Positions 22,112-45,147 of a stretch of DNA of 64,000 bases are shown here, one piece after another. Numbering within the stretch: position 1 is the stretch's first letter; each line of letters opens with the position of its first letter. This stretch comes from Frankiales bacterium (GTDB lineage: Bacteria > Actinomycetota > Actinomycetes > Mycobacteriales > SCTD01), in NCBI GenBank assembly GCA_025966135.1, contig JAOPVP010000077.1, forward strand, positions 3,756 through 67,755, written 5' to 3'. A program made the translations under genes and the position numbers. The notes beneath the pieces are model-generated. The model made no database searches. It worked only from the letters and a program-made list of their open reading frames with translations, and was not told the DNA's origin.

Positions 22112-22499
22112 GAGGTCTCAACACCTCTCGTTCGCGACGGGTCGTCGCATCCAGAGACGATCCGGCATCCGCAGCGGCGCCGCTTCGTGTCAAGCGGACG
22201 AAATCAAGGATCCAGCCCCGGCCCAGGGCAGCGGCTCCGAGGATCGCGTGGCCGGCGATGATGCTGTCAAGCCGAGAAATGTGGTCACCGTTCGTCCTGG
22301 CAGACCTAGATGCGAGAAGGGACATCGGAGGGCTGACGAAACGAGCCACCAGACGTATGTTGGGGTCACGGGTGCCTGACCGGGCTCGCTGGCCAGGCAT
22401 GTGCATCAGGCCTTCGGGCAGCGCCAGGGTGAAAGGCGGCTCGCCGTGACACCCGCTCCGACACTCCACGCGGCTGCCATGCCGCAAGGTGAAGTCGTC

Positions 22500-24892: not shown

Positions 24893-25348
24893 TCACAGCA
24901 GCAGGTCAAACAGTCGCTCGGCTCGTTCCCAATGCGTTGTCTGGGGGTTCTTCAGATCTGGGTCGAGCAACCGCATGGCTCGCGCCAGCGCCACACTCAC
25001 GCCTCCGGCAACAGAGACGAGGCCGTTCCTCGTCTGCTCGCTGTAGTCGAAGTCCGTTGGCGGTAGCGGCGTGATCTCCCGGAGGGCTCTGGTCAGGTCG
25101 ACCTCGGAATCGACCTTTTCGAACTCGTGCAGACAAGCCTGCAACCCCGCGGTGATCGGCAGGTCCCACAACTCGATCAAGTCACGGCCGTTGGCCTTAG
25201 CGACAGCCTCAGCACGAACGACGAGGCTCCGCAGCCGCGCATCGATGAAGTCCTGGTGCCGTTTGATGTCGTTCTTGTCGATGTTGAGACCTGCCGCCGC
25301 CCGGAAGAACCTTTCCCACGTATTCACGGATGTCACGGCCAACGTCAT
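24893..25348 (-). CDS. DUF1931-like (histone-fold-like) protein
   Basis: 151 aa from the internal ATG (GAGGA upstream). 'WERFFRAAAGLNIDKNDIKRHQDFI...AKANGRDLIELWDLPIT...KNPQTTHWERAERLFDLLL' matches my recollection of DUF1931 proteins. Confidence 0.6.
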   Translation of the reverse strand: MTLAVTSVNTWERFFRAAAGLNIDKNDIKRHQDFIDARLRSLVVRAEAVAKANGRDLIELWDLPITAGLQACLHEFEKVDSEVDLTRALREITPLPPTDFDYSEQTRNGLVSVAGGVSVALARAMRLLDPDLKNPQTTHWERAERLFDLLL

Positions 25349-25499
25349 CGCCGTCCTCACGTCAAGACCAGGTGCGGCGCCGACTCCGCGCCACCTCTCA
25401 GTGTCGCCTCCGACCCACCGCGCATGCATCCCCGAAAGCCGTGACTGCGATGATCCCCTCAGTCTTCACTCGGCCTCAAGGCGAGCGAGTGACACCAGC

Positions 25500-25967
25500 T
25501 CAGTCGGTGCGTTCCGATTCGACCGAAGCGTCGAGGTAGAGAGTCAGATCGCTGTCCGCACGGGGATCCGCACGCAACCAGCGGGCCATGCCGGCTGGGT
25601 CCCGCGCTTCGAGAGCGTCACGGTCGACCTGCCGGGCCTGGCTGATGCGGGCCAACTGGAGCGGGATGGTGGATATCTGGGTCGCCGTATAGCTGCTAGA
25701 CCAGGCACGACATGGCTCCGAGGTGCTCAGCGATTCTCCAGATGCCGTCTCGTGATCCGCGTTGTTGCACTCGCGAACACGCAGCTCGTTCGTGGCGTTC
25801 GTGGCGTCGTCAGCGGCGTCGAAGAACGAGATCCGCCACCACAAGCAGCTGCACCGAGAATAGTTCCTCCGCGACGTACATCCACCCAACTGTGACTTCA
25901 CCGCCGCCCGTGCGCAGTGCAACAACCCCGGCACTAGCTCACACACCGCCATCGCGTCCTGGTTCAT
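25500..25967 (-). CDS. hypothetical protein (no recognisable domain; Cys-rich N-terminal half)
   Basis: 155-aa ORF with GGGAGGG just upstream of the ATG. It starts 15 nt after the upstream stop, in the same orientation as its neighbours. Confidence 0.45.
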   Translation of the reverse strand: MNQDAMAVCELVPGLLHCARAAVKSQLGGCTSRRNYSRCSCLWWRISFFDAADDATNATNELRVRECNNADHETASGESLSTSEPCRAWSSSYTATQISTIPLQLARISQARQVDRDALEARDPAGMARWLRADPRADSDLTLYLDASVESERTD

Positions 25968-25982
25968 GACCCTCCCGCCTCA

Positions 25983-26384
25983 TCACGTGAATGCGGCGCC
26001 CGACTGCGGCCGCGCGCGCCCGTTCTCCGGCGCGTGCATCATCTCTTCTAGTCTCCGGTGCAAGTGGGCGGCAGCAAGTTCGATGTCGGCGCACTTGCGC
26101 TGACCAGCGCGGGACTCTACGGCGAGGACGCCGCATAAGTGCAGCTGCTCGAAGTCGCCGTACGGAAACTTGTAGTGGGACTTGGTTTCGGCGCCGTACC
26201 GGTCGTCGATGCCGAGGTACCAACGGCCGTATTCGGCGAAACCTCCCCGGGCGATGTAGTCGTTCTCCTGCTCAGTAGATGGCCGGTGTTCGCTCCACGC
26301 GTCGCGCTCATCGAGGACGATTCGGCCATCCTCGATCAGGTCGCGGGCAAAGATGTAGGCCCGCCCATTCAACGTCACTGACAC
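25983..26384 (-). CDS. uncharacterised conserved small protein, paralog A ('HYKFPYGDF' family)
   Basis: 133 aa from the GTG at 26384 (GAGAGG upstream). 80/118 residues are identical to the product of 39078..39470 by hand alignment ('WSEHRPS..QEN.YI', 'EYGRWYLG', 'TKSHYKFPYGDFE', 'ESRAGQRK'). Confidence 0.65.
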   Translation of the reverse strand: MSVTLNGRAYIFARDLIEDGRIVLDERDAWSEHRPSTEQENDYIARGGFAEYGRWYLGIDDRYGAETKSHYKFPYGDFEQLHLCGVLAVESRAGQRKCADIELAAAHLHRRLEEMMHAPENGRARPQSGAAFT

Positions 26385-26726
26385 GGCGATGCCTCTCTGC
26401 AGCCATTGCTGCCAAGGATCCGGCGAAGTCCTCGTTCCGGCATCCCGGATACCGATGCATGTTCTTGTTCCGTGCGCGCGGGACGCATACGGCAGCCCCC
26501 GAGCACGTGTTCTGGTGGGAGCGCTCGCAGCCACGGCCTTGCTGCACGTCCTGCTTCTCGCCGTGCCCTATCCCCTGCGGTTCTTCAATGGATCGTTGCA
26601 CTCGCGACAATGGCCGCCGCCACCGTCGCCTCCACCCGACCGGGAGACACCGCCGACCAGGTCGCAGCAGTGGCCATTACTGCGCCCATCGGCATCGTGC
26701 GATCGTGAGGAACTGTTCGTAGTCCA

Positions 26727-27296
26727 TCAGGACGTTGGTTGTTGCTTGATGGCCGACACCTCGATCTCGAGGTTCACCTTGTCGCTTACCAGCAAGCCGC
26801 CGGCCTCCAGCGGGGCGTTCCACGCCACGCCCCAATCCTTGCGATTGAGTGTGCAAGATCCCTCAAACCCCGCACGAACGTTGCCGAAAGGGTCGACCGC
26901 GACGCCGGTGAACACGAAGTCGACTGTTATGGGGCAGGTCGTTCCCTTGATGGTGAGGTCACCGGTCATCTTGTAGTGCTTGTCGTCGATCTTCTCGACG
27001 GCAGTGCTGTGAAACGTGATCTGGGGGTGGTGCTCCATGTCGAGAAAGTCGTTGCTGCGCAGGTGCGCATCCCGGTCCGCGTTGCCGGTGTCGATGCTCC
27101 TGGCCTCGATCACCACCGACGCAGTGGACCGCTCGGGGTGCGCAGCGTCGAGATGAGCGTTGCCCTCGAACTCCCGGAAACGGCCGCGTACTTTGGTCAC
27201 CATGGCGTGACGAGCTACGAACCCCAGTTGGGTGTGGGCAACGTCGAGGACGTAGTCACCGCTGAGATCGATCGCTGGCGATGTCGAAGTGGTCAT
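26727..27296 (-). CDS. YceI-family polyisoprenoid-binding protein
   Basis: 189 aa from the internal ATG (AGGAGA upstream). 'SIDTGNADRDAHLRSNDFLD...ITFHST...GDLTIKGTT' are YceI signatures. Confidence 0.85.
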   Translation of the reverse strand: MTTSTSPAIDLSGDYVLDVAHTQLGFVARHAMVTKVRGRFREFEGNAHLDAAHPERSTASVVIEARSIDTGNADRDAHLRSNDFLDMEHHPQITFHSTAVEKIDDKHYKMTGDLTIKGTTCPITVDFVFTGVAVDPFGNVRAGFEGSCTLNRKDWGVAWNAPLEAGGLLVSDKVNLEIEVSAIKQQPTS

Positions 27297-27825
27297 TGGC
27301 TTTCTCCTGGCAGGGTCTCCGCTGCAGTCGCGGCGGTTGCCGTCAGACTCTCCGCTCAGGCAAGTGCTGGGCATCCCGGGATCGGGCGACTTCTCGGGAT
27401 CCCACAGCAAGACGCAGCGCTGGAAGCCACTGCGCGAGTTGCGCCGCGCCACCGGCGTGCTCAACTTGGCGGCCGGACTGATCATCCTGTGGAAGCCGGC
27501 CGAGTCACTGGTAGCGCTCACCATGCTCGTCGCCGTGTTCCTGCTCGTCGGCGGCCTGTTCCGCATCCTGATCGGCGTCGCGGTCGGCCTCCCCGGATCC
27601 GGCTGGCTCGTGCTTCACGGAGTCGTGGACGTGGTCCTCGCTGTCCTGATCATCGCCAACCTGCCTGAAGCCAGCTTCTCCGTCCTCGGCCTGCTGCTCC
27701 CGATCTCGCTGTTGGTCGACGGCACGGCGCTAGTCGTGCTCGGCAGCGTTGGGCATCGTGGTTTCGGCCGCATTGCGGCCTTCGCCCGGGTGCATGAATC
27801 GCCCAGGTCTCCTCGTCACGCCTGA
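27289..27825 (+). CDS. HdeD/DUF308-like membrane protein (short form; true start probably downstream, about 27364-27457)
   Basis: TM segments 'VLNLAAGLIILWKPAESLVALTMLVAVFLLVGGLFRI' and 'GWLVLHGVVDVVLAVLII'. The track start overlaps the divergent YceI start, so a later GTG/TTG is likelier. Confidence 0.5.
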   Translation: MVIGFLLAGSPLQSRRLPSDSPLRQVLGIPGSGDFSGSHSKTQRWKPLRELRRATGVLNLAAGLIILWKPAESLVALTMLVAVFLLVGGLFRILIGVAVGLPGSGWLVLHGVVDVVLAVLIIANLPEASFSVLGLLLPISLLVDGTALVVLGSVGHRGFGRIAAFARVHESPRSPRHA

Positions 27826-28887
27826 TTCCGGAGCCGGGCTCGCCGGGAGACGCTCCACCTCGGTTCGCAGCCGCGGCAGGCTCTCGGGGTAGTTGCGCTG
27901 GAGGAAGTCGAGGAGTTGCTCGCGGACCTCGCACCGCAGGTCCCAGTTGCTCGGCGCATCGGCGGAGCTCATCAGCCCCCTCAGCACCATCGTGGTTGGC
28001 GTCGTGTCGACGACCTGCAGCACCCAGTCGCGACGGTCCCAGAGTGGAGACGCCTCGACGAGCCGCTGCATCTCGACTCGTAGGCGCTCGACCGGCACCG
28101 AGAAGTCGACGTGCAGGATGACGTTGCCAAGGACGCGCGACTCCTGGCGGGTCCAGTTCTGGAACACGTTCTGTGTGAACCATGACACCGGGAGGATTAG
28201 CCGCCGGTTGTCCCATGTGCGGACGACGACATACGTCAGCGTGATCTCCTCGATTCTGCCCCACTCGCCGTCGACCACGACGACGTCATCGATCCGGATC
28301 GGGTCAGTAAAGGCGATCTGCAGCCCGGCGATCAGGTTGCCCAACGTCGTCTGGGCCGCGAGGCCGGCGACGATGCCTAGCACGCCGGCAGAGGCCAGGA
28401 AGGATGCACCGAGCGTGCGTCCGCGAGGGAAGGTCATGAGTGCTGCCGCGATCGCCACGAAGATGACGATGGCGACAAGCACTCGCCGCAGGACCACGAT
28501 CTGAGTGCGAAGTCGGCGCGCCTGTCTGTTATTGCCAACGCCGCTGGGCATGCGCACCGCGGCGACGTCCTCAACTACCGCGCTGAGCTGGACCAGGAGC
28601 CACGAGACCGAGCCGATCAGCAGCACGGTGAACGCGTGTGAGACTGCCTCGGCCCAGCGCCGATCCGGGGTCGAGTCCGGGAGCACAACCATGATTGCCG
28701 CAACCATGAGCGCCAAGCGAAACGGCCACCGGCAGCGCTTCTGCAGCGAGACCCACACCGGGTCGCCCGAACGCCGCCCTGCGCCGCTGGTTACCCGCCC
28801 GACCAGCACCGCTGTCACCCAGGCGACGACGGCAGCCGCCGCACTCCATCCGAGCACCGGCAGCACATCGCGCGCGCGGCCCGCCAC
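27730..28887 (-). CDS. MscS-family mechanosensitive channel
   Basis: 'GVLGIVAGLAAQTTLGNLIAGLQIAFTDPIRIDDVVVVDGEWGRIEEITLTYVVVRTWDNRRLILP' is the MscS core. GTG at 28887 was chosen downstream of the MFS stop; the start is uncertain. Confidence 0.8.
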   Translation of the reverse strand: MAGRARDVLPVLGWSAAAAVVAWVTAVLVGRVTSGAGRRSGDPVWVSLQKRCRWPFRLALMVAAIMVVLPDSTPDRRWAEAVSHAFTVLLIGSVSWLLVQLSAVVEDVAAVRMPSGVGNNRQARRLRTQIVVLRRVLVAIVIFVAIAAALMTFPRGRTLGASFLASAGVLGIVAGLAAQTTLGNLIAGLQIAFTDPIRIDDVVVVDGEWGRIEEITLTYVVVRTWDNRRLILPVSWFTQNVFQNWTRQESRVLGNVILHVDFSVPVERLRVEMQRLVEASPLWDRRDWVLQVVDTTPTTMVLRGLMSSADAPSNWDLRCEVREQLLDFLQRNYPESLPRLRTEVERLPASPAPESGVTRRPGRFMHPGEGRNAAETTMPNAAEHD

Positions 28888-28916
28888 GTCGAGAGCTGCG
28901 AGCTCCGGGTGCCCCG

Positions 28917-30488
28917 TCAGCCCCGGCCTCCGTGACCGACGAGTGCACGGCGGCGGGCGGCGTCCGGGTTGCGTCGCACGTGCGCGGCACAACCGCCGGT
29001 GAGTCCGCTGGCGCAGGCATCGCTGGCAGTCGCCGCACGCGCGGACAGCGGCGTCGCTACCGACTCGAGGGAGCGACGTTCTGCATCGACACCCCAGATG
29101 GCCTCCACGATCCCGCCGATGACCATCAACGCCGCGGCAAAGGTGTAGCCGAGGAAGACCTTGCCCCGATCGTGGCCGCTGCCGATGAGGGTGGCGAACA
29201 ACCATGGCGCGACAACACCACCGCAGAGAGTCGCGATTGCGAAGAAGAACGCGATCGCCTGTGCCCGGATCTCGATGGGGAACGCCTCGCTCACCGTGAG
29301 GTATGCCGAGGACGCCGCTGCGGAGGCGATGAAGAAAATGATGCACCACAAGAGGGTCTGGCTGAGTGCCGTGAGTGATCCTCGGTTGAACATCCACCCG
29401 GTGATGAACAGCAGGACGCCCGATGCGACATAGGTGCCGCCAACCATGACGCGTCGACCCACCGAGTCGAACAAGGGACCGAGCACGATTGGGCCCAGCA
29501 GGTTGCCGACCGCGAACGGGAAGATGAAGAGGGAGACCTTGTCGCTGCTGATGTCGTAGAATTCGGCCAGGATCAAGGCATATGTGAAGAAGATCGCGTT
29601 GTAGAGGAACGATTGAGTCGTCATCAGTGCGAAGCCAATGAGGGATCGGCGCCGGTAGTCACGAAGCAGAGTGCGGGCAAGATCGCGATAGCTCAACTCC
29701 ACCCGGTCGACGATCTCGATTGCCTCGTGATCGTTCACCGGCTCGACCTTGATGCCCTGCTCGTTGGCCGCGGCCTCGATCTCACTGACGATGCGTTCGG
29801 CCTCCTCAGGCTGGCCGTGCGTCAACAGCCAGCGCGGACTCTCTGGAATGTGGCGTCGCAGCGGCCAGATGGCCAGACCGATGACCGGGCCGATGAGCAG
29901 GCCGAGGCGCCACCCGACGTTCACACCGAAGAGGCCTTCGTTGAGGAAGGCGACGTTTGCCGCTGCACCGATCATCGCGCCGAGCCAGTAGGTGCCGTTG
30001 ACCGCCAGGTCTGTCCGACCGCGGTACGGCGCAGGGATCAACTCGTCGATCGCGGAGTTGATGGCGGCATACTCTCCACCGATGCCGGCACCGGCGACGA
30101 TGCGGGTCAAGGCAAAGTACACGAAGCCCGTCGAACCAGCAGTAAGCGCGTTGCCGACCAAGTAGATGCCCAGAGTGACGATGAACAGCTTCCGCCGACC
30201 GAGCTGGTCGGCGAGTCGCCCGAACACCAGGGCACCGATGACCTCGCCGAACAGATAGAGGCTTGCGCTCAGCCCCACCTGCGACGAGGAGAAGTGCAAG
30301 GTCCCTGCGTCACGGAGCCGGTCGGCGATGGATCCGGCGATGGTGATCTCGACACCGTCGAGCACCCACGTGATGCCCAATGCAACGATGACGCGCCAGT
30401 GGAATCGCGTCCACGGCAACCGGTCGAGACGCGCGGGGACGGTGCTGCGGATCGGTTGCACGGACGGCCGCGCGCGGTCGGTGGTCAT
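28917..30488 (-). CDS. MFS transporter (sugar-porter / metabolite:H+ symporter-like)
   Basis: 523 aa, 12-TM pattern, 'GRLADQLGRRKLF' MFS loop motif. Confidence 0.8.
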   Translation of the reverse strand: MTTDRARPSVQPIRSTVPARLDRLPWTRFHWRVIVALGITWVLDGVEITIAGSIADRLRDAGTLHFSSSQVGLSASLYLFGEVIGALVFGRLADQLGRRKLFIVTLGIYLVGNALTAGSTGFVYFALTRIVAGAGIGGEYAAINSAIDELIPAPYRGRTDLAVNGTYWLGAMIGAAANVAFLNEGLFGVNVGWRLGLLIGPVIGLAIWPLRRHIPESPRWLLTHGQPEEAERIVSEIEAAANEQGIKVEPVNDHEAIEIVDRVELSYRDLARTLLRDYRRRSLIGFALMTTQSFLYNAIFFTYALILAEFYDISSDKVSLFIFPFAVGNLLGPIVLGPLFDSVGRRVMVGGTYVASGVLLFITGWMFNRGSLTALSQTLLWCIIFFIASAAASSAYLTVSEAFPIEIRAQAIAFFFAIATLCGGVVAPWLFATLIGSGHDRGKVFLGYTFAAALMVIGGIVEAIWGVDAERRSLESVATPLSARAATASDACASGLTGGCAAHVRRNPDAARRRALVGHGGRG

Positions 30489-31387
30489 CGGCCCGGACTC
30501 ACGGTGATTGGTTGTTTGCGGAGCAGATCTGTCGCCGCCGCGCCGACGACGCGCTGCCGGTGCAGGCCCCGTCGTACATCCATCTCATGGGGCACGCCTT
30601 CGGCCACACAGGCCGCGAACTCCGAGTACATGGCCTCGTAGGTCTCGCGCCCGACCACCCCGGCGCAGTCGATTGCCGCGGCTCCTCCGGGCCCGAAGAT
30701 CTCGATGTCGCCACGGTCGCGCTCAACGTCGACTGTGCCGCTCAACGGCGCGTCGCTGAACCGACCACGCTCGTGTTCGGGCGCTAGACCAACCCAACCG
30801 TCGAGGTCGCCGTGGGCGAGCACGTCGGCCACCGGCCCGAGTGCGGCGTCGAGCATGTCGATCAGGCGAGGCCCCAGCATCCGCTTCCCGCGCTCCAGTC
30901 GCCAAGTCGCAGTCGCCGAGCCGGCCGCGAAGGCGCTGAACATGAGCTTGTCGATGCCGCCCTGCGGAGGTGTCTTCGGCACCTGAAGGTTCAAGAAGCG
31001 ACGGACGGCTACCGCATAACGCCACGTCAGCGCCACTTGCGACACGACGGCACCCGAAGCCACCGCGGAGGCGAGCTCTTCGGCCCCGGCGACGTCGGCG
31101 GCAATCGGGATCTCGAGCAGCAACGGCTTGTGACGCAAGGCCACCGATGGCGCAAGCTCAGCCTGCACCGCCGGGGGCACCGCGAAATCGATCGCGTCGC
31201 AGGTGTTCAGCAAATCCTCGTAACGGTTGAAAGCAATCACACCGTGCGCCGCCGCCAACTCAGTGGCAATCTTGGGTGAACGGCTCCAGACACCCCCGAA
31301 GGTGATCTCGGGACACCGCGACAGAGAGGGAGCGTGGAGGTTGCGTGCCCGACGACCGGCACCCACGAAATCAACTTTGATCGCCAT
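30485..31387 (-). CDS. Gfo/Idh/MocA-family oxidoreductase
   Basis: N-terminal Rossmann 'IKVDFVGAGRRAR' and family-typical 'KPLLLEIPIA'. Its stop overlaps the MFS ATG (ATGA). Confidence 0.65.
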   Translation of the reverse strand: MAIKVDFVGAGRRARNLHAPSLSRCPEITFGGVWSRSPKIATELAAAHGVIAFNRYEDLLNTCDAIDFAVPPAVQAELAPSVALRHKPLLLEIPIAADVAGAEELASAVASGAVVSQVALTWRYAVAVRRFLNLQVPKTPPQGGIDKLMFSAFAAGSATATWRLERGKRMLGPRLIDMLDAALGPVADVLAHGDLDGWVGLAPEHERGRFSDAPLSGTVDVERDRGDIEIFGPGGAAAIDCAGVVGRETYEAMYSEFAACVAEGVPHEMDVRRGLHRQRVVGAAATDLLRKQPITVSPGR

Positions 31388-31388
31388 G

Positions 31389-31616
31389 TCAAACCCCGGT
31401 GAGCTGGCGCTGCAGCTTCTCGCGCCGCGCCACGAGCCAGGCGATGATCGCCTCCTGCTCCTCAGCGGCGCTCAACGCGACCGACAATTCCTCCGGGTCC
31501 CGCGGGGCGTCGCGTCGCTCGGCGATCTCGCGCCGGAGATGAGCGGCCTCCCGCCGCAGGCGCTCCAAGTCATCGTCGGCTCGGAGCAGCTCATCGACCG
31601 TCTTATGGGCGACCAT
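31389..31616 (-). CDS. small coiled-coil hypothetical protein
   Basis: 75 aa from the ATG at 31616 (GAGAGGA upstream). Charged heptad-like sequence. It ends 2 nt before the oxidoreductase start. Confidence 0.4.
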   Translation of the reverse strand: MVAHKTVDELLRADDDLERLRREAAHLRREIAERRDAPRDPEELSVALSAAEEQEAIIAWLVARREKLQRQLTGV

Positions 31617-31723
31617 GCGAGTCCGTCCTCTCGGCGACGACACCACCTTTGCACCCCAGTTCCGCCTGGCCATCCCCCAACTCCGTGACGCGCGCCGCCC
31701 TACCCGCCCGGCACGGTTCGTGC

Positions 31724-32135
31724 GTGCTTAGGGTGGGTGCCGGGCACGATTTCGTGGTCGTCGCAAACCGTCTGCCGGTCGGACGAGATCCGCGACGAAG
31801 CAACCGGGTCCACCGAGTGGCTGCCGAGCCCGGGTGGACTCGTGACTGCGTTGCTGCTGGTCATGCGTTCTGCGGACGGTGCATGGGTCGGGTGGACCGG
31901 GGCGGGGGCAGCTCCCGAGCCGTTCGACGCCGACGGGTTGCGGCTGGTGCCGGTGGGGCTCACCGATGCCGAGGTCGCGGACCACAGGCGCGAAGACGTC
32001 CGTGCACGCGCGAAGGAGATCCGAGACGCGTTGGGTGACAACGATGTCGCGCGATGGGCGGCCGGTTTCCTCGATGCGTTGCGCGAGGCACCCGGCGATC
32101 CCGCACGGCGTGCCTCTGCCAAGGCAGAGCGGTAG
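31724..32135 (+). pseudogene. otsA: otsA (trehalose-6-phosphate synthase) remnant: N-terminal ~75 codons joined to C-terminal ~45 codons, plus a frameshift
   Basis: 'HDFVVVANRLPV', a frameshift, then 'WLPSPGGLVTALLLV...GAWVGWTG...GLRLVPVGLTDAEVADH', then directly the C-terminal-type 'NDVARWAAGFLDAL'. The ~350-aa catalytic core is missing. Confidence 0.65.
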
Positions 32136-32157
32136 TTCTCGAGATCAGTAGTTCTCG
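32132..32157. repeat. direct repeat GTAGTTCTCG x2 (16-nt period) upstream of the ferritin-like gene
   Basis: 32132-32141 and 32148-32157, in an A/T-richer patch ~125-145 nt upstream of the ATG at 32279. Confidence 0.5.
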
Positions 32158-32278
32158 GGGTGCGCGTTCGCCTGCCTGGCACCTAGTTTTCGGGTCCAGC
32201 GTGGTATGGACTCCGTTCCTACGCACTCGGTAGGAGGCTGTCGCGCGCGATGAGGGGACGGACAGCGAGGAGAGCGAA

Positions 32279-32812
32279 ATGAACGACTTTGCGCTGGACC
32301 TGGACCGCATCCGAGTCGCCGCTCGACAGCACCTCGAGACCGGCCCGGTCACGGACGAGTACGGCATGGACGTTGCCAGGGTCATCGACGTCCTGAACGA
32401 CGTTCTCGCCACTGAGCTTGTGTGCGTGCTGCGCTACAAGCGCCACTACTACATGGCGAAAGGCCTGCATGGCGCTGCCGTGGCAGCCGAGTTCCTGGAG
32501 CACGCCGCTGACGAACAGCGCCACGCGGATCTGGCGGCCGAACGGATCGCTCAGCTGGGCGGCGAGCCAGACTTCAATCCCGACGTGTTGGCCAAGCGAA
32601 GTCACACCGAGTATGTGGACCGCGGCGACCTGTTGGACATGATCCGCGAGGATCTGGTGGCTGAGCGGATCGCCGTCGCGACGTACGCCGAGATTGTTCG
32701 GTGGCTTGGTGACGGCGACCCGACGACGCGTCGGCTCATCGAACGGCTGCTGGCCGAAGAGGAGGGCCACGCCGAGGACCTGCGGAACCTGCTAGATCGG
32801 CTCCACACTTGA
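32279..32812 (+). CDS. bacterioferritin-family / ferritin-like di-iron protein
   Basis: 'LNDVLATELVCVLRYKRHYYMAKG...EFLEHAADEQRHADLAAERI...LVAERIAVATYAE...LLAEEEGHAEDL' shows a four-helix ferroxidase ligand pattern (E, ExxH, E, ExxH). Confidence 0.8.
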   Translation: MNDFALDLDRIRVAARQHLETGPVTDEYGMDVARVIDVLNDVLATELVCVLRYKRHYYMAKGLHGAAVAAEFLEHAADEQRHADLAAERIAQLGGEPDFNPDVLAKRSHTEYVDRGDLLDMIREDLVAERIAVATYAEIVRWLGDGDPTTRRLIERLLAEEEGHAEDLRNLLDRLHT

Positions 32813-32827
32813 CGGGCGCCTTGCGGG

Positions 32828-33385
32828 ATGACGCCTTCCACCGCGGGGTTCCCGGCCCGGGAAGACGCCGACGCCGGCAACCTCACCGGGCCGGGTTCGT
32901 TGTCGGCGGAGACGGTCGCGGACCCACGACTGGGTAGCGGCCGACGACCTGATGCGGCGCTGTTGCGGATGCTGGCCTATGCCGAGGACGCGGTTCTCTA
33001 CGTCGTGGCGCTGCTTCTGCTGGTACTAGGCAGCGGTGTCTTGGTCCGCAGCATCAGCGAGTTGCTGGGCAGCGAAGCTTCGTGGCCGGAGCGATTCGTG
33101 GTGGTTCTCGAGGAGCTGCTTCTGGTCCTCATCATCCTGGAAATCTTCGTCACGGTCCTGACGCACCTGCAAGGCGGGCGCCTTCAGCTCGAGCCGTTCA
33201 TCACCGTGGCGGTCATTGCCGTGGTCCGTCACATTTTGTCGATCGTGGTTCGGCTAGCCATCCCGGGCGCGCCGGTGCAGAGCCGGTTCGGGCTCGCTGA
33301 GCTCGCTGCCAACGCAGGCGTGGCGTTCCTCCTGGTCGCTGCGCTCGCGCTGAACCGCTGGTCAGAGAGCCGACATTCCGCCTGA
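32828..33385 (+). CDS. PsiE-family (phosphate-starvation-inducible) membrane protein-like
   Basis: 'LLLVLIILEIFVTVLTHL...LEPFITVAVIAVVRHIL' parallels the PsiE core. Four TM segments. Confidence 0.55.
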   Translation: MTPSTAGFPAREDADAGNLTGPGSLSAETVADPRLGSGRRPDAALLRMLAYAEDAVLYVVALLLLVLGSGVLVRSISELLGSEASWPERFVVVLEELLLVLIILEIFVTVLTHLQGGRLQLEPFITVAVIAVVRHILSIVVRLAIPGAPVQSRFGLAELAANAGVAFLLVAALALNRWSESRHSA

Positions 33386-33603
33386 GCCACGGCTGACGCG
33401 GTGACGTATGGGCGGCGTTAGTGACAGCAGAGCCGACCGAGCAGCCAATCGTAAAGCCGTGTCCACCGGGTGCATAGGCGGCGGCGGCGCTAAGAACTTG
33501 CGAACCAGCGGGGGCATCCGATCGGCGCCGGAATGTAACCAGTTCTTGGGAGGTTCGCCGCGCTGCCTCTTGGCAGAGTAGGGCCACGGCAACCGGCCTG
33601 GCG

Positions 33604-35664
33604 GTGACTCCCATGACTACACAGGCGGCCCCGCGCACGGGGCAACGGGTGTTTCGTGACCGGCGCGACGCCGGTCGCGTGCTGGCGAGGATGCTCGAGG
33701 GCTACCGCGGCCGGAACGACGTCGTCGTCATGGCACTGCCACGAGGCGGGGTGCCGGTCGCGTATGAGGTCGCGACAGCGCTGGGCGCACCTCTGGATGT
33801 GGTCGTCGTCCGAAAGCTGGGCGTGCCCGGGCACGAAGAGGTGGCGATGGGCGCCATCGCCAGCGGCGGAGTGGCGGTTCTCAATGACGATGTGATCCGC
33901 GGTCTCGGGATCTCGCCCGAAGCACTGCAACAAGTGGCTGAGCGGGAGGGCCGCGAGTTGCTGCGCCGCGAGCGGGCCTACCGAGAGGGCCGCCGGCCGC
34001 CAGACCTGTCCGGCAAGACCGTCATCCTGGTCGACGACGGCCTGGCCACCGGCGCCAGCATGAGGGCCGCCATCCGGGCGCTGCTTCAACAACACGCCGG
34101 GCGCATTGTGGTCGCCGTGCCCGCCGCGCCGGCGCCGACATGCGGCGAGCTTGCTGACCTGGTCGACGATGTCGTGTGCGCCAGCACGCCGACGCCCTTC
34201 GTGGCAGTCGGCGAGTCCTATTGGGATTTCACCCAGACCACCGACGAAGAGGCACGCGAGCTGTTGCGTGCCGCGGCGACGACGTCTGAGGCCGCGCGTA
34301 GCGCATGGCCGGCGCAGAGCGACGCCGAGGTCATCCGAGAGGAATCAATGCCGGTTCAGGACGGCGCGCCCGGCGACTCGGCGCTGTTCGATCTCGTCGG
34401 CGATGCCCAGTACGTGCTACTCGGAGAGGCCTCGCACGGTACTCACGAGTTCTACGACGCGCGTGCTCGGATGACGCGGCGCCTGATCGAGGAAAAGGGG
34501 TTCACGGCAGTAGCGGTCGAGGCGGACTGGCCGGACGCATATCGGGTGAACCGCTACGTGCGAGCCCGCAGCGACGACGAAGTGGCGGAGGAGGCGCTGC
34601 GCGGCTTCGTCCGCTTCCCGACCTGGATGTGGCGCAACACGGTGGTGCTGGACTTCGTCGGGTGGCTGCGCGAGCACAACGATCGCGTCGGTCGCGAGGG
34701 GGGCGAGCTAGCCAAGGCGGGCTTCTACGGCCTGGACCTGTACAGCCTGCAGCGATCCATCCAGGAGGTCATCGCCTACCTCGATCGGGTCGACCCGGCG
34801 GCCGCCACTCGAGCTCGCGAACGATATTCCTGCTTCGACCACGCCGCCGAGAGCACCGACGCTGGCCAGTCCTACGGCTTCGCGGCAGCGTTCGGCGCCG
34901 GCGAGTCGTGCGAGCAGGAGGTGATCGACCAGTTGACCGACCTGCAGCGCCACGCAGTCGAGTATGCCCAGCGAGACGGCTTGCTCGCGGAGGACGAGCT
35001 GTTCTACGCCCAGCAGAACGCGGTTACCGTGAAGAACGCGGAGCAGTACTACCGTGCCATGTTCTCCAGCCGTGCGAACACCTGGAATCTTCGCGACCGG
35101 CACATGGTCGACACCCTCGACGCGCTCGCCGCCCATGTCGGCCAACAGCGCGGCGAACCCGCCAAGATCGTGGTGTGGGCGCACAACACGCACCTGGGGG
35201 ACGCCCGCGCGACCGAGATGGGCGCCCGCGGCGAGCACAATGTGGGCCAACTCGTGCGGGAGCGCCACCCCGAGAACTGCAGCCTGGTCGGCTTCACCAC
35301 CTACACCGGGACCGTCACCGCGGCCGACGACTGGGGAGGCCCGGCCGAACGCAAGTGGGTCCGGCCAGGACTTCCGGACAGCGTCGAGGAGCTGTTCCAC
35401 GAGACTGCAGCGAAGGCCTTCCTGCTCCCGTTCGGCCAGGCACCGCGGGCCACCACCGTGCTGAGCTCCGCGCTGCTTGAACGAGCGATCGGCGTGATCT
35501 ACCGGCCCGAGACCGAACGCGAAAGCCACTTCTTCCTTGCTCGTGTGGCCGACCAGTTTGACGCGGTCATCCACATCGCCGAAACACGAGCAGTCGAACC
35601 CCTCGAACGCACCGCCCGCTGGGAACAAGGAGAGGTTCCCGAGACCTACCCATTCGCGCTCTGA
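33604..35664 (+). CDS. fusion protein: phosphoribosyltransferase domain + erythromycin-esterase-like domain
   Basis: N-terminal '[18 protein letters not shown]...[16 protein letters not shown]' (PRT PRPP loop). C-terminal '[42 protein letters not shown]...[15 protein letters not shown]' (Ere-like). Confidence 0.8.
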
Positions 35665-35936
35665 ACACCGTCCCCGTCCTCGTTGGAGGCACCGTGTCCG
35701 TAGTCCAGCAGCTCCTCAGGAACAACTGAATGGTCATGAAGCCAATGGACAAGGCCGCCGACTTCGTGCCAGCCGAGGCTCACTCTGTCGAGGCAGGTGT
35801 GTTTGTGCGGCCTGGCTGTTGGGAGCTGCGGAGTGCCCGAGGTTCTATCCAGGTGGCGCCTCGTCGAGTGCCCGTACCTTGTTGAGGTCCCCAGAGGCGG
35901 ACTGGGGCACTCATCAAACCTCCTCGATGGCGAAGA

Positions 35937-37316
35937 GTGGGAGTGACGGTGGACAACGGCACGGCGTCGCGACGCGTTGTCATCGTTGGCAGCGGATTCG
36001 GGGGGCTGTTTGCGGCTAAGGCACTGAAGCGGGCGCGGGTCGAGGTGATCCTCGTGTCGCGCACCACCCACCACCTGTTCCAGCCGTTGCTGTACCAGGT
36101 GGCCACCGGGATCTTGTCCGAGGGTGAGATCGCCCCAGCGACCCGAGAGGTGCTGCGCGGACAGCACAACGCTCGCGTGCTGCTCGGCGATGTGATCGGC
36201 CTCGACCTCGCCACGCGGACCGTCACGTCTGACCTGCTGGGGGAGACCACGATTACCCCCTACGACTACCTGATTGTTGCGGCCGGGGCCACGCAGGACT
36301 ACTTCGGGAACCGCCATTTCGTCGACCATGCGCCGGGCATGAAGACAATCGAGGACGCGCTGGAGCTGCGGTCGTGCATTTTCGGCGCCTTCGAACTCGC
36401 CGAGGCGGCCACGGATCCGGCCGAGATCGATCGGCTGTTGACGTTCGTGGTCATCGGCGCTGGGCCTACTGGGGTCGAGATGGCGGGTCAGATCAGCGAG
36501 CTCGCCCGCCGGACGCTGCCCGGGGTCTATCGCAACATCGATCCGCGCGCCGCGCATGTCGTCCTGCTCGACGCAGCGCCCACCGTGCTGGCCAGCTTCG
36601 GCAACAAGCTGTCCGGTAAGACCGCCCGGCATCTGCGCAAGATCGGCGTGGAGCTGCGACTGTGCGCGAGGGTCGTGGACGTGGATGCGACCGGCGTGGA
36701 AGTAGAGGACCTCCAAGGCCGGCGCCGCATCCCTTCGTTGTGCAAGATCTGGGCCGCAGGCGTCGCCGCATCGCCGCTGGGCGCTCAGCTGGCTGCCCAG
36801 TCGGGGGCCAAGGTGGATCGGGCGGGTCGGGTGCAGGTCCAGGCGGATCTCACGCTGCCCGGATATCCGCGGGTGTTTGTTGTCGGCGACATGGTCAGCT
36901 TCCCTGGGCTGCCGGGTGTAGCGCAGGTCGCGATCCAGGGTGGTCGATACGCCGCCAACCAAATTGCTCGTGACTGCGCGGGCCTGCCGACCGGTCAGCC
37001 ATTTCGCTACCACGACAAGGGCAACATGGCCACTGTGTCACGCTCCTACGCGGTTGCAAGCATCGGCCCGCTACGCATCGCGGGTTTCGGTGCCTGGCTG
37101 CTGTGGCTGGTCGTGCACTTGATCTACCTGGTCGGGTTCAAAAACCGGTTCACCACTCTGGTCGACTGGGCGGTGGCCTTCATTGGTCGCGGGCGCTCCG
37201 AGCGAACGGTGATCACCCAACATGTCCTCTCCCGTAACGCCGCCCGACCACGACGCAACACGCACGATGACTCACCCACCGCCAGCCGGCAACACGCCCC
37301 CACACCCAAGCGGTGA
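35937..37316 (+). CDS. ndh: type II NADH:quinone oxidoreductase (NDH-2)
   Basis: 'RVVIVGSGFGGLFAAKAL...HHLFQPLLYQVATG' and 'FVVIGAGPTGVEMAGQI'. The C-terminal membrane-anchoring helix is present. GTG start is uncertain by a few codons. Confidence 0.88.
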   Translation: MGVTVDNGTASRRVVIVGSGFGGLFAAKALKRARVEVILVSRTTHHLFQPLLYQVATGILSEGEIAPATREVLRGQHNARVLLGDVIGLDLATRTVTSDLLGETTITPYDYLIVAAGATQDYFGNRHFVDHAPGMKTIEDALELRSCIFGAFELAEAATDPAEIDRLLTFVVIGAGPTGVEMAGQISELARRTLPGVYRNIDPRAAHVVLLDAAPTVLASFGNKLSGKTARHLRKIGVELRLCARVVDVDATGVEVEDLQGRRRIPSLCKIWAAGVAASPLGAQLAAQSGAKVDRAGRVQVQADLTLPGYPRVFVVGDMVSFPGLPGVAQVAIQGGRYAANQIARDCAGLPTGQPFRYHDKGNMATVSRSYAVASIGPLRIAGFGAWLLWLVVHLIYLVGFKNRFTTLVDWAVAFIGRGRSERTVITQHVLSRNAARPRRNTHDDSPTASRQHAPTPKR

Positions 37317-37520
37317 CTGTGGCCAGGCCGCGTCCGCCACGTCGACCAACTCTCGCTGGGTCCGATGGAGGACGCCGAACCTTCGCCGAGTAGCCGAGTC
37401 CGGTTGCTGGCGCTAGACCCCAATCGTCACGAGAGGATGGCTGCAACAAGCGCGCACACAACGCACGACCGCCGACGCGGCTCTCGGACCCTGGTGCCGC
37501 GCGCGGTTCGCCGCGACCAG

Positions 37521-37697
37521 TTACATGTGCTCGGAGACGCCCTCCGCGAACTCCCACCACTGCAGTGGGAGCCAGTCACCGCCGACGAATGCATCCAGCG
37601 TCGCCCCCTGACCGGTCAATAGCACGCTGGTTCCCGCTGGGTAGACGATGCCGGACAGCCCGGGCACCTGCACGAGCAGCGTCCCGATGCGTCGCAA
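37521..37697 (-). CDS. unlisted small ORF (58 aa), hypothetical protein
   Basis: TTG start with AAGGAG 7 nt upstream. 'LRRIGTLLVQVPGLSGIVYPAGTSVLLTGQGATLDAFVGGDWLPLQWWEFAEGVSEHM'. About 85% G/C at third positions by my count. Below the track's 60-aa cutoff. Confidence 0.45.
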   Translation of the reverse strand: MRRIGTLLVQVPGLSGIVYPAGTSVLLTGQGATLDAFVGGDWLPLQWWEFAEGVSEHM

Positions 37698-37898
37698 CTC
37701 GCTTCTCCTTCTTCGTGGTTCATCTATCTGGGGGATGACAGCAAAGCTGCGTCAAGGTTACGTGAGGTTGTGCGTGCCGGCAGCCAGCGATGGCGCCGCC
37801 CCTGCCCAGCAGCGTCGGGCCAGTCACTCGGCACCGGTCCCCGAGCAGACATGCGTGCGTCGAACGGGCGTCTGCATCACTGAGGAGAGTGGGCGCTG

Positions 37899-39032
37899 GT
37901 GAAGGCTGTCGTCTACAAAGCACCGTTCCAGGTAGCGGTCGAAGAGGTTGAAGATCCGCGGATCGAGCACCCGAACGACGTGATCGTCCGGATCACGACG
38001 ACGGCGATCTGCGGCTCGGACCTGCATATGTACGAGGGCCGCACGGCGGCCGAGCCCAACATCGTGTTCGGGCACGAGAACCTGGGCATCGTCGAGCAGG
38101 TCGGGTCGGGTGTTGTCTCGATCAGGCAGGGCGACCGGGTCGTGATGCCCTTCAACGTCGCCTGCGGCTTCTGCAAGAACTGCATCGCCGGCGACACCGG
38201 CTTCTGCCTCACCGTGAACCCCGGCTTCGCCGGTGGCGCCTTCGGGTACGTGGCCATGGGCCCTTACCAGGGAGGCCAGGCGGAATACCTGCGCGTCCCC
38301 TACGCCGACTTCAACTGCCTGAAGCTGCCCCCGGGTACCGACCATGAGTCCGATTTCGCGTTGTTGGCCGACATCTTCCCGACGGGCTATTACGGCTGCC
38401 AGCTGGCCGAGGTCTCCCCGGGCGAGAGTGTCGCCGTCTACGGCGGGGGACCGGTCGGTCTGATGGCCGCCTACTCCGCGCTCCTCCGAGGCGCCTCCAT
38501 GGTTCTGGTTGTCGACCGGGTGCCCGAGCGGCTGCAGAAGGCGGCCGAGATCGGGGCGATTCCCATCAACTTCCAGGAAGCCGACGCGGTCGAGCAGATC
38601 AGGCAGCACACGAACGGTGAAGGCGCCGACAAAGGCGTGGACGCCGTCGGGTACCAGGCACAGGCATCGACGGGCTCTCGAGAGGAGCCGGCCGTCGTGA
38701 TCAACTCGCTCATCCATGCCGTGAGAGCCACCGGAAGGCTCGGCGTCCCGGGCCTCTACGTCCCCGCGGATCCCGGTGCTCCGGACGAGTCGGCGAAACA
38801 CGGGATGCTCCTGGTTGCCGTCGGCAAGCTCTTCGAGAAGGGGCTGCGCATGGGCACCGGGCAGTGCAATGTCAAGCGCTACAACCGGCAGCTGCGCGAC
38901 CTCATCATCACCGGCCGGGCAAAGCCAAGCTTCGTCGTTTCCCACGAGCTGCCCCTCGACCAGGCACCGGTCGCGTACGAGAAGTTCGACAAGCGCATCG
39001 AGGGCTACACCAAGGTGCTTTTGCACCCGTAG
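37899..39032 (+). CDS. fdhA: zinc-dependent, glutathione-independent formaldehyde dehydrogenase-like alcohol dehydrogenase
   Basis: 'ICGSDLHMYEGRT...GHENLGIVEQVG...PFNVACGFCKNCIAGDTGFC' and 'VYGGGPVGLMAA'. GAGGAGAG lies upstream. Confidence 0.85.
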   Translation: MKAVVYKAPFQVAVEEVEDPRIEHPNDVIVRITTTAICGSDLHMYEGRTAAEPNIVFGHENLGIVEQVGSGVVSIRQGDRVVMPFNVACGFCKNCIAGDTGFCLTVNPGFAGGAFGYVAMGPYQGGQAEYLRVPYADFNCLKLPPGTDHESDFALLADIFPTGYYGCQLAEVSPGESVAVYGGGPVGLMAAYSALLRGASMVLVVDRVPERLQKAAEIGAIPINFQEADAVEQIRQHTNGEGADKGVDAVGYQAQASTGSREEPAVVINSLIHAVRATGRLGVPGLYVPADPGAPDESAKHGMLLVAVGKLFEKGLRMGTGQCNVKRYNRQLRDLIITGRAKPSFVVSHELPLDQAPVAYEKFDKRIEGYTKVLLHP

Positions 39033-39077
39033 CCATCAGGCCCGCGCGACAACGCCAACAGCGGCAGGAGGCGTCAC

Positions 39078-39470
39078 ATGGCAGCCAGGTTGAACGAACG
39101 AGGGTACGAGTACGCCCGTCGACTGATCGAGCAGGGGCGCGTAGTCCTCGACGACCGGGACGAGTGGAGCGAACACCGCCCGTCGGCCCAGCAAGAGAAC
39201 GGCTACATCGACGAGCACGGATTTGACGAGTACGGCCGTTGGTATCTCGGCGTCGACGACGAGGTGAACGGGAACACCAAGTCCCACTACAAGTTCCCGT
39301 ACGGCGACTTCGAGAAGGTGCACCGATGCGGCGTGCTGACCGCCGAGTCTCGGGCTGGGCAGCGCAAGTACGTCGACATCGAGCTCGCCGTCGCCCACCT
39401 GCACGGGATGCTCGAGGAGTTGATGCACACCGCCGGCGCCCGTCGTCAGACGCCGCGGCAACAGGCCTAG
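39078..39470 (+). CDS. uncharacterised conserved small protein, paralog B ('HYKFPYGDF' family)
   Basis: 130 aa with GGAGG upstream, 45 nt after the fdhA-like stop. Paralogous to 25983..26384 and in inverted orientation. Confidence 0.7.
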   Translation: MAARLNERGYEYARRLIEQGRVVLDDRDEWSEHRPSAQQENGYIDEHGFDEYGRWYLGVDDEVNGNTKSHYKFPYGDFEKVHRCGVLTAESRAGQRKYVDIELAVAHLHGMLEELMHTAGARRQTPRQQA

Positions 39471-39492
39471 CGATTCATCCAGCCGCCTCAGG

Positions 39493-40368
39493 TCATCCCC
39501 TGCGTTGGCGGCGGCGCCAATCGATCGGGCCTGGTCGGGCTGGCTCCGACCGCTCGCCCGGCCGGTAGGGCACCGGGATGTACTCCACGCTCGGGCGTCG
39601 GCCGCGGGGCTGGGGGTAGAGGCCCATCAACTGGCGCACCTCGTTGGGCAGATCCGCGGACACCGTGAGTCCGAGCGTGCGGGCCAGTTCGACGGTGATG
39701 GGGAAGTCGTGGGTCCAGCGTCCCTCGCTCAGGGTCTGGGCGAGCTCGTCAGCCTGCTCGGCGGGTAGCTGCCGGCGCAGCAGGCCGGCGGCGAAGTCGC
39801 GTACCTGAGTCTGCGCCTTTCGGGAGAGGTCGGCCAGGATGAAAGTCTTGTCATCGATCTCGTTGGGGTCCTTCTGCGCGATCGCATACAGGATCGAGGC
39901 GGCCGGGTACTCCCCGAGTTGCGGATCGATCGGGCCAAGCACCGCGGTGGGCGCCAACACGATACTGTCCGCGGCCAGCGCGATGAGCGTGCCGCCGCTC
40001 ATGGCGTAGTGCGGCACGAACACCGTGACGGGGGCGGGGTGCGCGGCCAGCGCGGAGGCGATCTGCTCAGCGGCAAGGACTAGTCCGCCCGGGGTGTGCA
40101 GCACCAACTGGATCGGCACCTGCTTACCAGTCATCTCGATCGCGCGGATGACCGCCTCGGAGTCGTCGATGTCGATGAAGCCGCCGAACGGGATCCCGAG
40201 GAAAGAGAACTGCTCACGGCGGTGGATCAAGGTGATCGCGCGCCCGCCGCACCGCTTTTCCAGCTTTCGCAACGTGTGAAGCCGTCGCGAGTCCAGGACC
40301 CGTTGCTGGAACAGCGGCTGCAGGCTGGAGATGATGAAGAACAACCAGAGCAGATCCAGTGGAGTCAC
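39493..40368 (-). CDS. SDH-family (serine dehydrogenase proteinase) Clp-fold serine protease
   Basis: N-terminal TM segment, then 'ITLIHRRE...IDIDDSEAVIRAI...PIQLVLHTPGGLVLAAEQIA...HYAMSGGTLIALAAD', typical of PF01972-type proteins. Confidence 0.7.
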   Translation of the reverse strand: MTPLDLLWLFFIISSLQPLFQQRVLDSRRLHTLRKLEKRCGGRAITLIHRREQFSFLGIPFGGFIDIDDSEAVIRAIEMTGKQVPIQLVLHTPGGLVLAAEQIASALAAHPAPVTVFVPHYAMSGGTLIALAADSIVLAPTAVLGPIDPQLGEYPAASILYAIAQKDPNEIDDKTFILADLSRKAQTQVRDFAAGLLRRQLPAEQADELAQTLSEGRWTHDFPITVELARTLGLTVSADLPNEVRQLMGLYPQPRGRRPSVEYIPVPYRPGERSEPARPGPIDWRRRQRRG

Positions 40369-40793
40369 GTCGGCCCTCCCTTTCTATCCGGAGATACTGA
40401 TGGGGACACGGACTGCCGCACCGACATCTGGCTCGAGTCCGCTCGAGGAGATGCCGCCGCCACGGTCCCGCACCGGCTTGTTGCCAACCGAATCGCCACC
40501 TTCGGGGATGAGTCCGAAATGTCGAGCCAGAATGTCCCGACTAGCGACTCCGTCTATCGCCTGGTCGGCGTAGGCGGTGTCCCCGGGCGCGGTTCAAGCC
40601 GCCCACGTCGACTATCCCCGCTGTGACGGCGTTGGCGCCACATCCCCGGTCGAACGCATTTGGACAACCATGTGGTCAGAGCGCCACGGGCCTCCGCCCC
40701 CATATCCCAAGCTTCCGCCGACGCGGGCCGGCCCGGTCGACTCCACAATTTCAGAGTGCAGTGCCTCTCGGGCGGCTGCGGCCGGCGTGAGAT

Positions 40794-42028: not shown

Positions 42029-42030
42029 GG

Positions 42031-45104: not shown

Positions 45105-45147
45105 GCGGGGGGTTCCTCTCGTGGGGCATGCTCTTCGGGAGTGCCGT

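Follow-up and report, generated by a model that had tools for sequence, protein, structure and literature searches.

General-stress regulons governed by SigB in Bacillus and Streptomyces and by SigF in Mycobacterium contain a PoxB-type pyruvate oxidase, YflT, a CsbC-like Sugar_tr transporter, Dps- or ferritin-like proteins, and Zn-dependent dehydrogenases. We analyzed a 64-kb window of a contig from an uncultured Frankiales bacterium (the window is the whole stretch of DNA studied, and all positions refer to it) in which a first-pass annotation had marked a 15-kb block at 24893–40368 as a co-regulated stress island with internal decay. Profile searches against Pfam and NCBIfam, from which the family calls below are taken, reproduced all family assignments of that block. 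We show that it belongs to a real, non-random, mosaic stress island made up of known families and one conserved, unannotated family, here called P39k, and that a single regulon is unsupported.

Other described systems share genes or architecture with this locus. Rv2030c of Mycobacterium tuberculosis, encoded in the hspX operon of the DosR regulon, combines a phosphoribosyltransferase (PRT) with an erythromycin-esterase domain (PMC4410610). The proteobacterial tLST (for transmissible locus of stress tolerance) represents an exchangeable island with proteostasis, envelope, and oxidative/ion modules that carries HdeD-, PsiE-, DegP-, Clp-, and Trx-type genes (PMC8290217). EtnR1/EtnR2 of Mycobacterium sp. 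NBB4 are an experimentally proven two-protein epoxide-sensing activator, and EtnR-type pairs are common in Actinobacteria and mostly uncharacterised (bioRxiv 10.1101/2024.02.19.581074). Comparison loci from other genomes and metagenomes are cited below by number (L001 and so on).

Comparison with described systems

Likeness to the DosR regulon centered on the PRT and erythromycin-esterase fusion of the block (PRT-esterase; 33604–35664, + strand; Pfam Pribosyltran and Erythro_esteras, E = 4e-132), which has the domain architecture of Rv2030c of the hspX operon (Rv2028c–Rv2031c). Mycobacterial homologues of this protein (57–64% identity) carry DosR-type boxes and some of them follow hsp20 as in M. 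tuberculosis; an Rv1733c-like gene lies near P39k and PRT-esterase in L175, and the theme of non-growing survival is common to both. Unlike the DosR regulon, the window contains no DosR boxes, and the only GerE protein found in it has 725 amino acids (aa) and no detected receiver domain. No REC-GerE response regulator, universal stress protein, or nitroreductase was identified among the window proteins scanned, and no hsp20 was detectable in the window with an actinobacterial Hsp20 query. To our knowledge, most families of the block (YceI, DUF308, PsiE, MscS, DUF1931, SDH protease) do not belong to the DosR regulon. The island holds the same kinds of genes as the SigB and SigF regulons; unlike in those regulons, the corresponding promoters were not found in the window, and scanning the window proteins identified neither a sigma factor nor an anti-sigma gene of the RsbW type.

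With the tLST the window has in common HdeD/DUF308, PsiE-like and thioredoxin-system proteins, a protease of the DegP type, a disaggregase of the Clp type, and a channel or exchanger for cations. This likeness grows if the segment of native composition at 0.2–13 kb is included; several of the families in common are encoded there, beyond the region of low G + C content at third codon positions (GC3). The window is unlike the tLST in belonging to another phylum, in lacking the dna-shsp20-clpG(K) core and a conserved gene order, and in showing no sign of transfer as a unit. Its disaggregase has the ClpB architecture with a Clp_N domain, its gene order is unrelated to that published for the tLST (PMC8290217), and PRT-esterase, P39k, DUF1931, NDH-2, and PoxB are without a tLST counterpart. 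In concept the tLST is the closest of these systems, but the region is not a member of it.

Immediately left of the block, a gene for a PucR/CdaR-family regulator (608 aa; 22401–24227, +; Pfam HTH_30 at 530–588 and GGDEF_2) overlaps by 4 nucleotides (nt) with one for a MEDS-only protein (213 aa; 24224–24865, +; Pfam MEDS at 17–181), and the coordinates thus indicate translational coupling. This is the architecture of EtnR1/EtnR2, a PucR/CdaR protein with a C-terminal helix-turn-helix (HTH) domain coupled to a MEDS-only partner. Unlike EtnR1/EtnR2, the window pair does not lie beside alkene catabolic genes, and by Pfam its PucR/CdaR member has a GGDEF_2-like domain and no GAF domain. In L173 and L133, too, a MEDS gene is found close to these stress families.

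Extent, composition, and junctions of the island

The window is GC-rich (about 0.70), like high-GC Actinomycetota. The limits of the first-pass block are not natural borders; it is the right-hand two-thirds of a larger accessory and compositional unit at ~16.6–40.8 kb (~24 kb). GC3 inside 16.8–40.4 kb averaged 0.81 (range 0.73–0.87, 19 genes) versus 0.90 in the two flanks (range 0.85–0.95, 28 genes; Mann-Whitney p = 4e-8), with a sharp step at both edges, and total GC was 0.660 at 16.8–40.8 kb versus 0.70 in the flanks. In this respect the composition deviates from the flanks as that of genomic islands does. Two parts of the block had been described as less GC-rich, which holds for 24.9–27.3 kb (0.631) and fails for 35.6–37.9 kb, where the value (0.660) is that of the block as a whole (0.661).

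At the left junction, three-frame translation and the GC3 shift revealed what is left of an FAD ferredoxin-reductase-like gene, an N-terminal stump with a frameshift (16585–16770, +). The stump directly follows folE (GTP cyclohydrolase I, ~15980–16570, +), and the left break in composition falls there. Homologues of the folE-side genes directly adjoin PsiE and PRT-esterase in L002.

The right junction (40369–40815) was placed with blastn and the gene tables of relative contigs. Contigs L165–L168 are collinear with window positions 40816–53435, at 84% nt identity by blastn and 86–87% aa identity, over a cluster of LysR, luciferase-like monooxygenase, ABC transporter, FAD monooxygenase (42031–43761), hydrolase, and FMN-reductase genes. 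Left of 40816, blastn found no similarity between these contigs and the window; beyond the junction they carry, instead of the island genes, unrelated accessory genes for GerE, PAS, and JetD_C proteins and an integrase. The island is thus absent from the same site in this one relative lineage, as seen at the right junction.

Scans of the region for tRNA genes and Rfam families returned nothing, and the two junctions share no repeat of ≥12 nt, whether direct or inverted. The sole mobility gene in the region is an ISL3 transposase fragment, with no integrase, and so the mobility genes, tRNA genes, and repeats typical of many islands do not delimit it. The plasmid collection yielded no meaningful match, so the region is not a known plasmid segment. 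From the composition step, the end of collinearity at 40.8 kb, and the remnants of insertion sequences (IS) and genes, we conclude that 16.6–40.8 kb is accessory, occupies a variable site, and was probably assembled horizontally. The first-pass description of a stress island therefore stands for this larger unit, on those grounds and on the recurrence of its families as neighbors in distant Actinomycetota.

Recurrence of the families in other Actinomycetota

About 175 loci were fetched in all, including two anchored samples: 80 loci around PRT-esterase homologues in GTDB genomes (204 relatives of this protein were found) and 80 around homologues of the MFS transporter in metagenomes. None of the ~175 loci had the block as a syntenic unit, and its gene order was reproduced nowhere. 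The metagenome scan with the MFS protein gave no close relative on a long contig, with best identities of 62–74%. Lack of synteny in any relative had been proposed beforehand as the sign of random juxtaposition. The lack is formally what we observed, but random juxtaposition does not follow from it, since in other genomes the families come together again in different orders.

PRT-esterase homologues had as neighbors clpB and/or dnaJ-grpE-dnaK genes (L010, L013, L017), PsiE (L002–L004), HdeD (L003, L004), DUF1931 together with MFS (L005), and, in three loci, PoxB-like genes; Hsp20 was encoded immediately upstream in five loci (L011, L015, L016, L019, L022). Ferritin homologues were accompanied by YceI in L081 and by SDH protease and PRT-esterase in L083, and in L084 by an OtsA-like gene, as the otsA remnant does in the window. 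Around MFS homologues we found DnaK, DUF1931, otsA, P39k, and DegP, each in single loci. The best single locus was the metagenome contig L173, with ~9–10 window families within 20 kb; its genes encode MEDS, STAS, PRT-esterase, P39k, DUF1931, ferritin, a Pyr_redox fragment, thioredoxin, ClpB, a MerR-type HspR, DnaJ, GrpE, DnaK, and YflT. Four native right-flank genes, used as a control, had no co-occurrence with the anchors in the 160 anchored loci. These co-localisation counts speak clearly against pure chance.

P39k (39078–39470, +) begins 45 nt after the dehydrogenase gene of the block. The family is ~125 aa long and has >3800 homologues, all of them ‘hypothetical’, and P39k had no sequence match in Pfam, NCBIfam, or PDB. 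Invariant motifs of the family are WSEH, EN, FPYxDF, HxCG, and HLH. A second copy in the block, P26k (25983–26390, −), is a diverged, inverted paralogue with 79% nt and 64% aa identity to P39k and substitutions at four near-invariant family positions (alignment A1). An AlphaFold2 model of P39k, built on 32 aligned sequences, had a pLDDT of 44.6 and was unreliable. The P39k family adjoins PRT-esterase in 11 of the 80 loci anchored on the latter, often directly upstream or downstream on the same strand, and elsewhere neighbors Hsp20 (L169–L171) or DUF1931 (L172). Among P39k-anchored loci, L174 contains a dnaK operon with a MalT-type LuxR, and L175 an ANTAR regulator and a PRT-esterase, with the Rv1733c-like gene lying between P39k and PRT-esterase.

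Promoters and candidate regulators

Judged by orientation and gaps, the block appears to have seven or more transcription units, lying on both strands: DUF1931; P26k; YceI; DUF308; the small open reading frame (ORF) with Gfo/Idh/MocA, MFS, and probably MscS; ferritin with PsiE; PRT-esterase; NDH-2; the dehydrogenase with P39k; and the SDH protease. The SigF/SigB promoter GTTT-N14-18-GGGTA(T/C) had no strict match in the 64 kb, and a relaxed scan gave three matches, none upstream of block genes, with no GGGTA[CT] in the intergenic regions of the block. There were no exact matches to the DosR box, a GGGAC-N4-GTCCC palindrome, in the window, and allowing up to two mismatches gave 14 matches versus 36.7 expected from shuffles, none of them upstream of a block gene; as a positive control, the same scan detected clear boxes upstream of mycobacterial homologues. 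Scanning the whole window with a SigH/ECF (extracytoplasmic function sigma factor) consensus returned only one well-placed site. An enumerative dyad and k-mer search of 12 upstream regions did not rise above shuffled controls, and a scan for sigma-70 promoters and terminators was uninformative.

Co-regulation, the second part of the earlier proposal, accordingly found no backing in any block-wide SigF/SigB, DosR, or SigH/ECF signal or in the de novo search, and as far as the sequence tells, a single block-wide regulator is unsupported. Since what appear to be at least seven separate units lack a common promoter signature, several regulatory inputs are to be expected. The best candidates for regulators are the PucR and MEDS pair and the 725-aa LuxR protein.

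Upstream of PRT-esterase lies an ECF-sigma-type promoter-like element, GGAAT-N18-GTT (33530–33555, +; alignment A2), whose shape is that of SigH/SigR/SigE-type ECF promoters. Its position is kept in the window and in its three closest PRT-esterase homologues (L057, L001, L002), with the variants GGAAC-N17-GTT in L001 and GGAAG-N18-GTC in L002, broadly of the form GGAAY-N17/18-GTY. It is this positional conservation, in four related upstream regions and for one gene, that makes the element credible. A DosR-type box, GGGACTTCGGYCCCTAC, lies within 300 nt upstream of around 16 other PRT-esterase homologues in environmental loci (L021, L023–L031, L033, L036, L038, L043, L054, L067, L068), most of which bear the title Mycobacterium or Mycolicibacterium; 12 of the homologues have at most one mismatch to GGGAC-N4-GTCCC, and the other sampled PRT-esterase loci had no comparable box. 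The promoter type of PRT-esterase thus differs by lineage, DosR-type in mycobacteria and ECF-type here.

Other elements were considered and set aside. The intergenic elements ‘GGGGAT’ and ‘AGTTCT’ were dropped, being equally frequent inside genes or coinciding with start codons. A PhoP-like tandem GTTC-N7-GTTC occurred once, upstream of PRT-esterase and overlapping the ECF-type element, a single site that does not amount to evidence of a Pho regulon. The upstream region of the ferritin gene contains three copies of TAGTT(C/T)TCG(A/G)G at 32133–32195 (+), spaced 16 and 35 nt apart, which are not present upstream of other block genes.

Origin and function of the island

With moderate confidence, we interpret the region as a mosaic, partly decayed accessory stress region of ~24 kb, whose families recurrently adjoin one another in Actinomycetota and which answers to several regulatory inputs. 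The mosaic probably arose through several acquisitions and rearrangements and has partly decayed since. Its material comes from a recurrent set comprising an Rv2030c-like PRT-esterase, P39k, DUF1931, a DpsA-like ferritin, PsiE, HdeD/DUF308, YceI, MFS, PoxB, a second dnaK/clpB set, and MEDS regulators. Judging from the functions of these families, the island may support the survival of non-growing cells in four roles: membrane and osmotic homeostasis (MscS, DUF308, PsiE, YceI, and MFS with the oxidoreductase), low-energy respiration and redox balance (NDH-2, PoxB, Zn-dependent alcohol dehydrogenase), iron and oxidative protection (the ferritin-like protein), and proteostasis (SDH protease, dnaK remnants). 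An ECF-type sigma factor would drive PRT-esterase, and the PucR–MEDS pair and the LuxR protein may act on neighboring units. Gene content, composition, junctions, decay, repeated co-localisation, and the lineage-specific PRT-esterase promoters are what the analysis shows; the physiological role, the horizontal origin, and the pairing of regulators with units are what we infer from these data.

Several observations weigh against this interpretation. All functions are predicted at the family level. Low GC3 could partly stem from the weak codon bias of rarely expressed native genes, and the region is marked by neither a tRNA gene nor an integrase nor a flanking repeat. Only composition and a gene remnant place the left junction; the right one was placed against a relative. 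The co-occurrence figures come from counting in anchored samples, which gives no enrichment statistic for whole genomes. By itself, the ECF-type motif is statistically not unusual, with seven matches in the window, and a divergent, degenerate, or gapped shared site could have escaped our simple motif search.

If all block units answered one regulator, such as PucR–MEDS or the LuxR protein, and one signal (hypoxia, stationary phase, or osmotic), the shared functional theme of the families and the regulators immediately left of the block would be readily explained. In L173, L133, and L174, too, MEDS or LuxR-type genes have these families nearby, and PucR and MEDS pairs are a proven two-protein activator in Mycobacterium NBB4. 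We nevertheless consider such a regulon unlikely, given that no motif is common to the 12 upstream regions above shuffled expectation, that SigF/SigB and DosR sites are lacking and one well-placed ECF-type site is all that was found, and that the units lie on both strands and are interrupted by pseudogenes; the variation of the PRT-esterase promoter by lineage suggests gene-by-gene wiring instead. A recombination junkyard of unrelated accessory genes and pseudogenes, its stress theme a product of labelling bias, would fit the missing synteny across the fetched loci, the many gene remnants, and the different cargo of the relative at the same site, which points to a variable hotspot; several of the ‘stress’ labels do rest on family names. 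It is quite unlikely in view of the re-association of the families, in other orders, in distant genomes (~9–10 of them within 20 kb in L173), the 11 of 80 loci in which P39k adjoins PRT-esterase, and the control flank genes, which show no such co-occurrence.

We regard it as improbable that the locus is native and vertically inherited, with low expression causing its low GC3 and the relative having lost or replaced the region. The adjacent clpB-dnaJ-grpE-dnaK, HdeD, and DegP region (0.2–13 kb) does have native composition and homologues that adjoin PRT-esterase elsewhere, and the L002 arrangement, with folE-side genes directly beside PsiE and PRT-esterase, would fit such a locus. The sharp GC3 step at both edges and the IS and gene remnants at or near the left edge argue otherwise. 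Further, island genes have their best homologues in scattered groups (Nocardioides, Pseudonocardiales, Sporichthyaceae, and more, with 75–90% identity), whereas the flank genes have a relative of 86–87% identity with conserved order.

Beyond the mosaic region itself, we advance tentatively, and with more doubt than conviction, a broader idea: a widespread, undescribed actinobacterial dormancy and stress-tolerance neighborhood with a core of PRT-esterase, P39k, DUF1931, DpsA-like ferritin, Hsp20 or a second dnaK-clpB, and MEDS, reshuffled and horizontally exchanged like the tLST, with a master regulator that differs by lineage (DosR in mycobacteria, ECF here). If this is true, Rv2030c, long uncharacterised, would gain P39k as a new and conserved partner. 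Rv2030c is a core member of the dormancy regulon in M. tuberculosis, and our observations provide leads to its function. The Rv2030c family travels with the small, highly conserved, unannotated P39k; in genomes across the Actinomycetota it also accompanies genes for DUF1931, ferritin-like proteins, Hsp20, and DnaK/ClpB, and its promoter has been exchanged, being DosR-type in some lineages and ECF-type in others. The region points to soil actinobacteria maintaining modular loci for stress survival that can be exchanged and are tLST-like in concept; for the window itself, it amounts to a decayed mosaic island rather than a tidy regulon.

Gene content of the 15-kb block

The first gene of the block encodes a DUF1931 protein of the histone-fold family (24893–25429, −) with a full-length Pfam match (PF09123, E = 7e-47); its real start is probably at 25351. 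The following stretch (25430–25982) is probably non-coding or decayed, since its 155-aa ORF (25500–25967) had no family match and a poor codon signature (GC1/2/3 = 0.59/0.55/0.77). P26k is followed by a YceI-like protein (26727–27296, −; Pfam YceI E = 2e-50, 150/150 profile positions) and a DUF308/HdeD-like membrane protein (27400–27825, +). Pfam matched a single repeat in the latter versus three in the intact HdeD at 2965–3531, and the gene is possibly 5′-truncated; read as the long ORF, it would overlap, head to head, with the start of YceI.

The minus-strand segment 27730–31673 is a probable operon with overlapping stop and start codons. In order of transcription it contains a small coiled-coil ORF (31389–31673, −; no family match), a Gfo/Idh/MocA oxidoreductase (30485–31387, −; Pfam GFO_IDH_MocA, Rossmann domain), a Sugar_tr MFS transporter (28917–30488, −; Pfam Sugar_tr/MFS), and an MscS-type channel (27730 to ~28900, −; Pfam MscS beta-domain). 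Next to it lies the otsA pseudogene remnant (31742–32129, +), part of the internal decay reported for the block, which is real. In tblastn with the full-length OtsA of L134, residues ~34–114 of the 517-aa homologue aligned at 31742–31985 with a frameshift and residues ~470–509 at ~32040–32129, so that ~80 N-terminal and ~40 C-terminal codons remain and ~355 are deleted.

The ferritin-like, DpsA/bacterioferritin-related protein (32279–32812, +) was assigned by Pfam with weak NCBIfam DpsA/bfr matches and has no exact sequence match on record. A PsiE-family membrane protein (32828–33385, +; Pfam PsiE) follows after 15 nt, ahead of PRT-esterase. The next gene encodes an NDH-2-type flavoprotein (35937–37316, +). 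Pfam Pyr_redox_2 was matched (E = 2e-43), but NDH2_C scored 26.1 bits, just below the cutoff of 27.7, and we have softened the earlier label of NDH-2 to that extent. The otherwise empty 580-nt gap between this gene and the dehydrogenase gene contains a 58-aa ORF (37521–37697, −) with a good codon signature (GC1/2/3 = 0.69/0.48/0.84).

The Zn-dependent dehydrogenase (37899–39032, +; Pfam ADH_N/ADH_zinc_N) had been called a formaldehyde dehydrogenase. Membership in the Zn-dehydrogenase family was upheld, but the identification as FdhA was not, with 354 bits against fdhA_non_GSH (TIGR02819) versus a cutoff of 637; at the family level it is a relative of glutathione-independent formaldehyde dehydrogenase. 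The last island gene, on the other side of P39k, encodes an SDH-family Clp-fold serine protease (39493–40368, −; Pfam SDH_protease E = 1e-108), which exceeded the cutoff of the NCBIfam equivalog NF047768 (389 versus 250 bits) and is assigned to it. Four ORFs of the block had no Pfam or NCBIfam family (25500–25967, 25983–26390, 31389–31673, 39078–39470).

Genes left of the block and in the native flanks

The first intact island gene encodes a PoxB-type ubiquinone-dependent pyruvate dehydrogenase (16864–18603, −; Pfam TPP_enzyme N/M/C; NCBIfam NF006591 with 917 bits, cutoff 792), and its GC3 of 0.73 is the lowest among the window genes measured. Directly upstream is the ~190-nt 5′ remnant of a second dnaK (18666–18856, −), with 78% nt identity to the dnaK start at 10994–11184 and 75–81% to dnaK of L010, L013, and L066; the intact dnaK of the window lies at 9283–11169. 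It is followed by the ISL3-family transposase fragment (18916–19332, −), which covers only profile positions 141–240 of 240 of Pfam DDE_Tnp_ISL3, and by a YflT-type general-stress-protein remnant (19370–19740, −) with a partial Pfam YflT match and ORFs in two overlapping frames, over which the gene is, by eye, apparently split.

The 725-aa LuxR-type regulator (19934–22111, −) has a C-terminal HTH (Pfam GerE at 642–697). Its N-terminal 640 aa are without family assignment, and its PDB matches were only to NarL/DevR HTH domains. Of the neighbors named earlier on this side, the LuxR and PucR regulators, the latter with MEDS, and a dnaK 5′ remnant are present, and an actinobacterial Hsp20 query detected no hsp20.

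Further left, the segment of native composition at 256–12936 encodes an ANTAR-GAF regulator, a cNMP-binding TrxR-like flavoprotein, the intact HdeD, a DegP-like protease, ClpB, DnaJ, GrpE, DnaK, and a Na/Ca exchanger. The native right flank contains two pairs of diverged tandem paralogues with 66–71% nt identity, one of them a pair of luciferase-like monooxygenases (43776–44968 and 50390–51561) and the other at 56809–58260 and 58482–59867.

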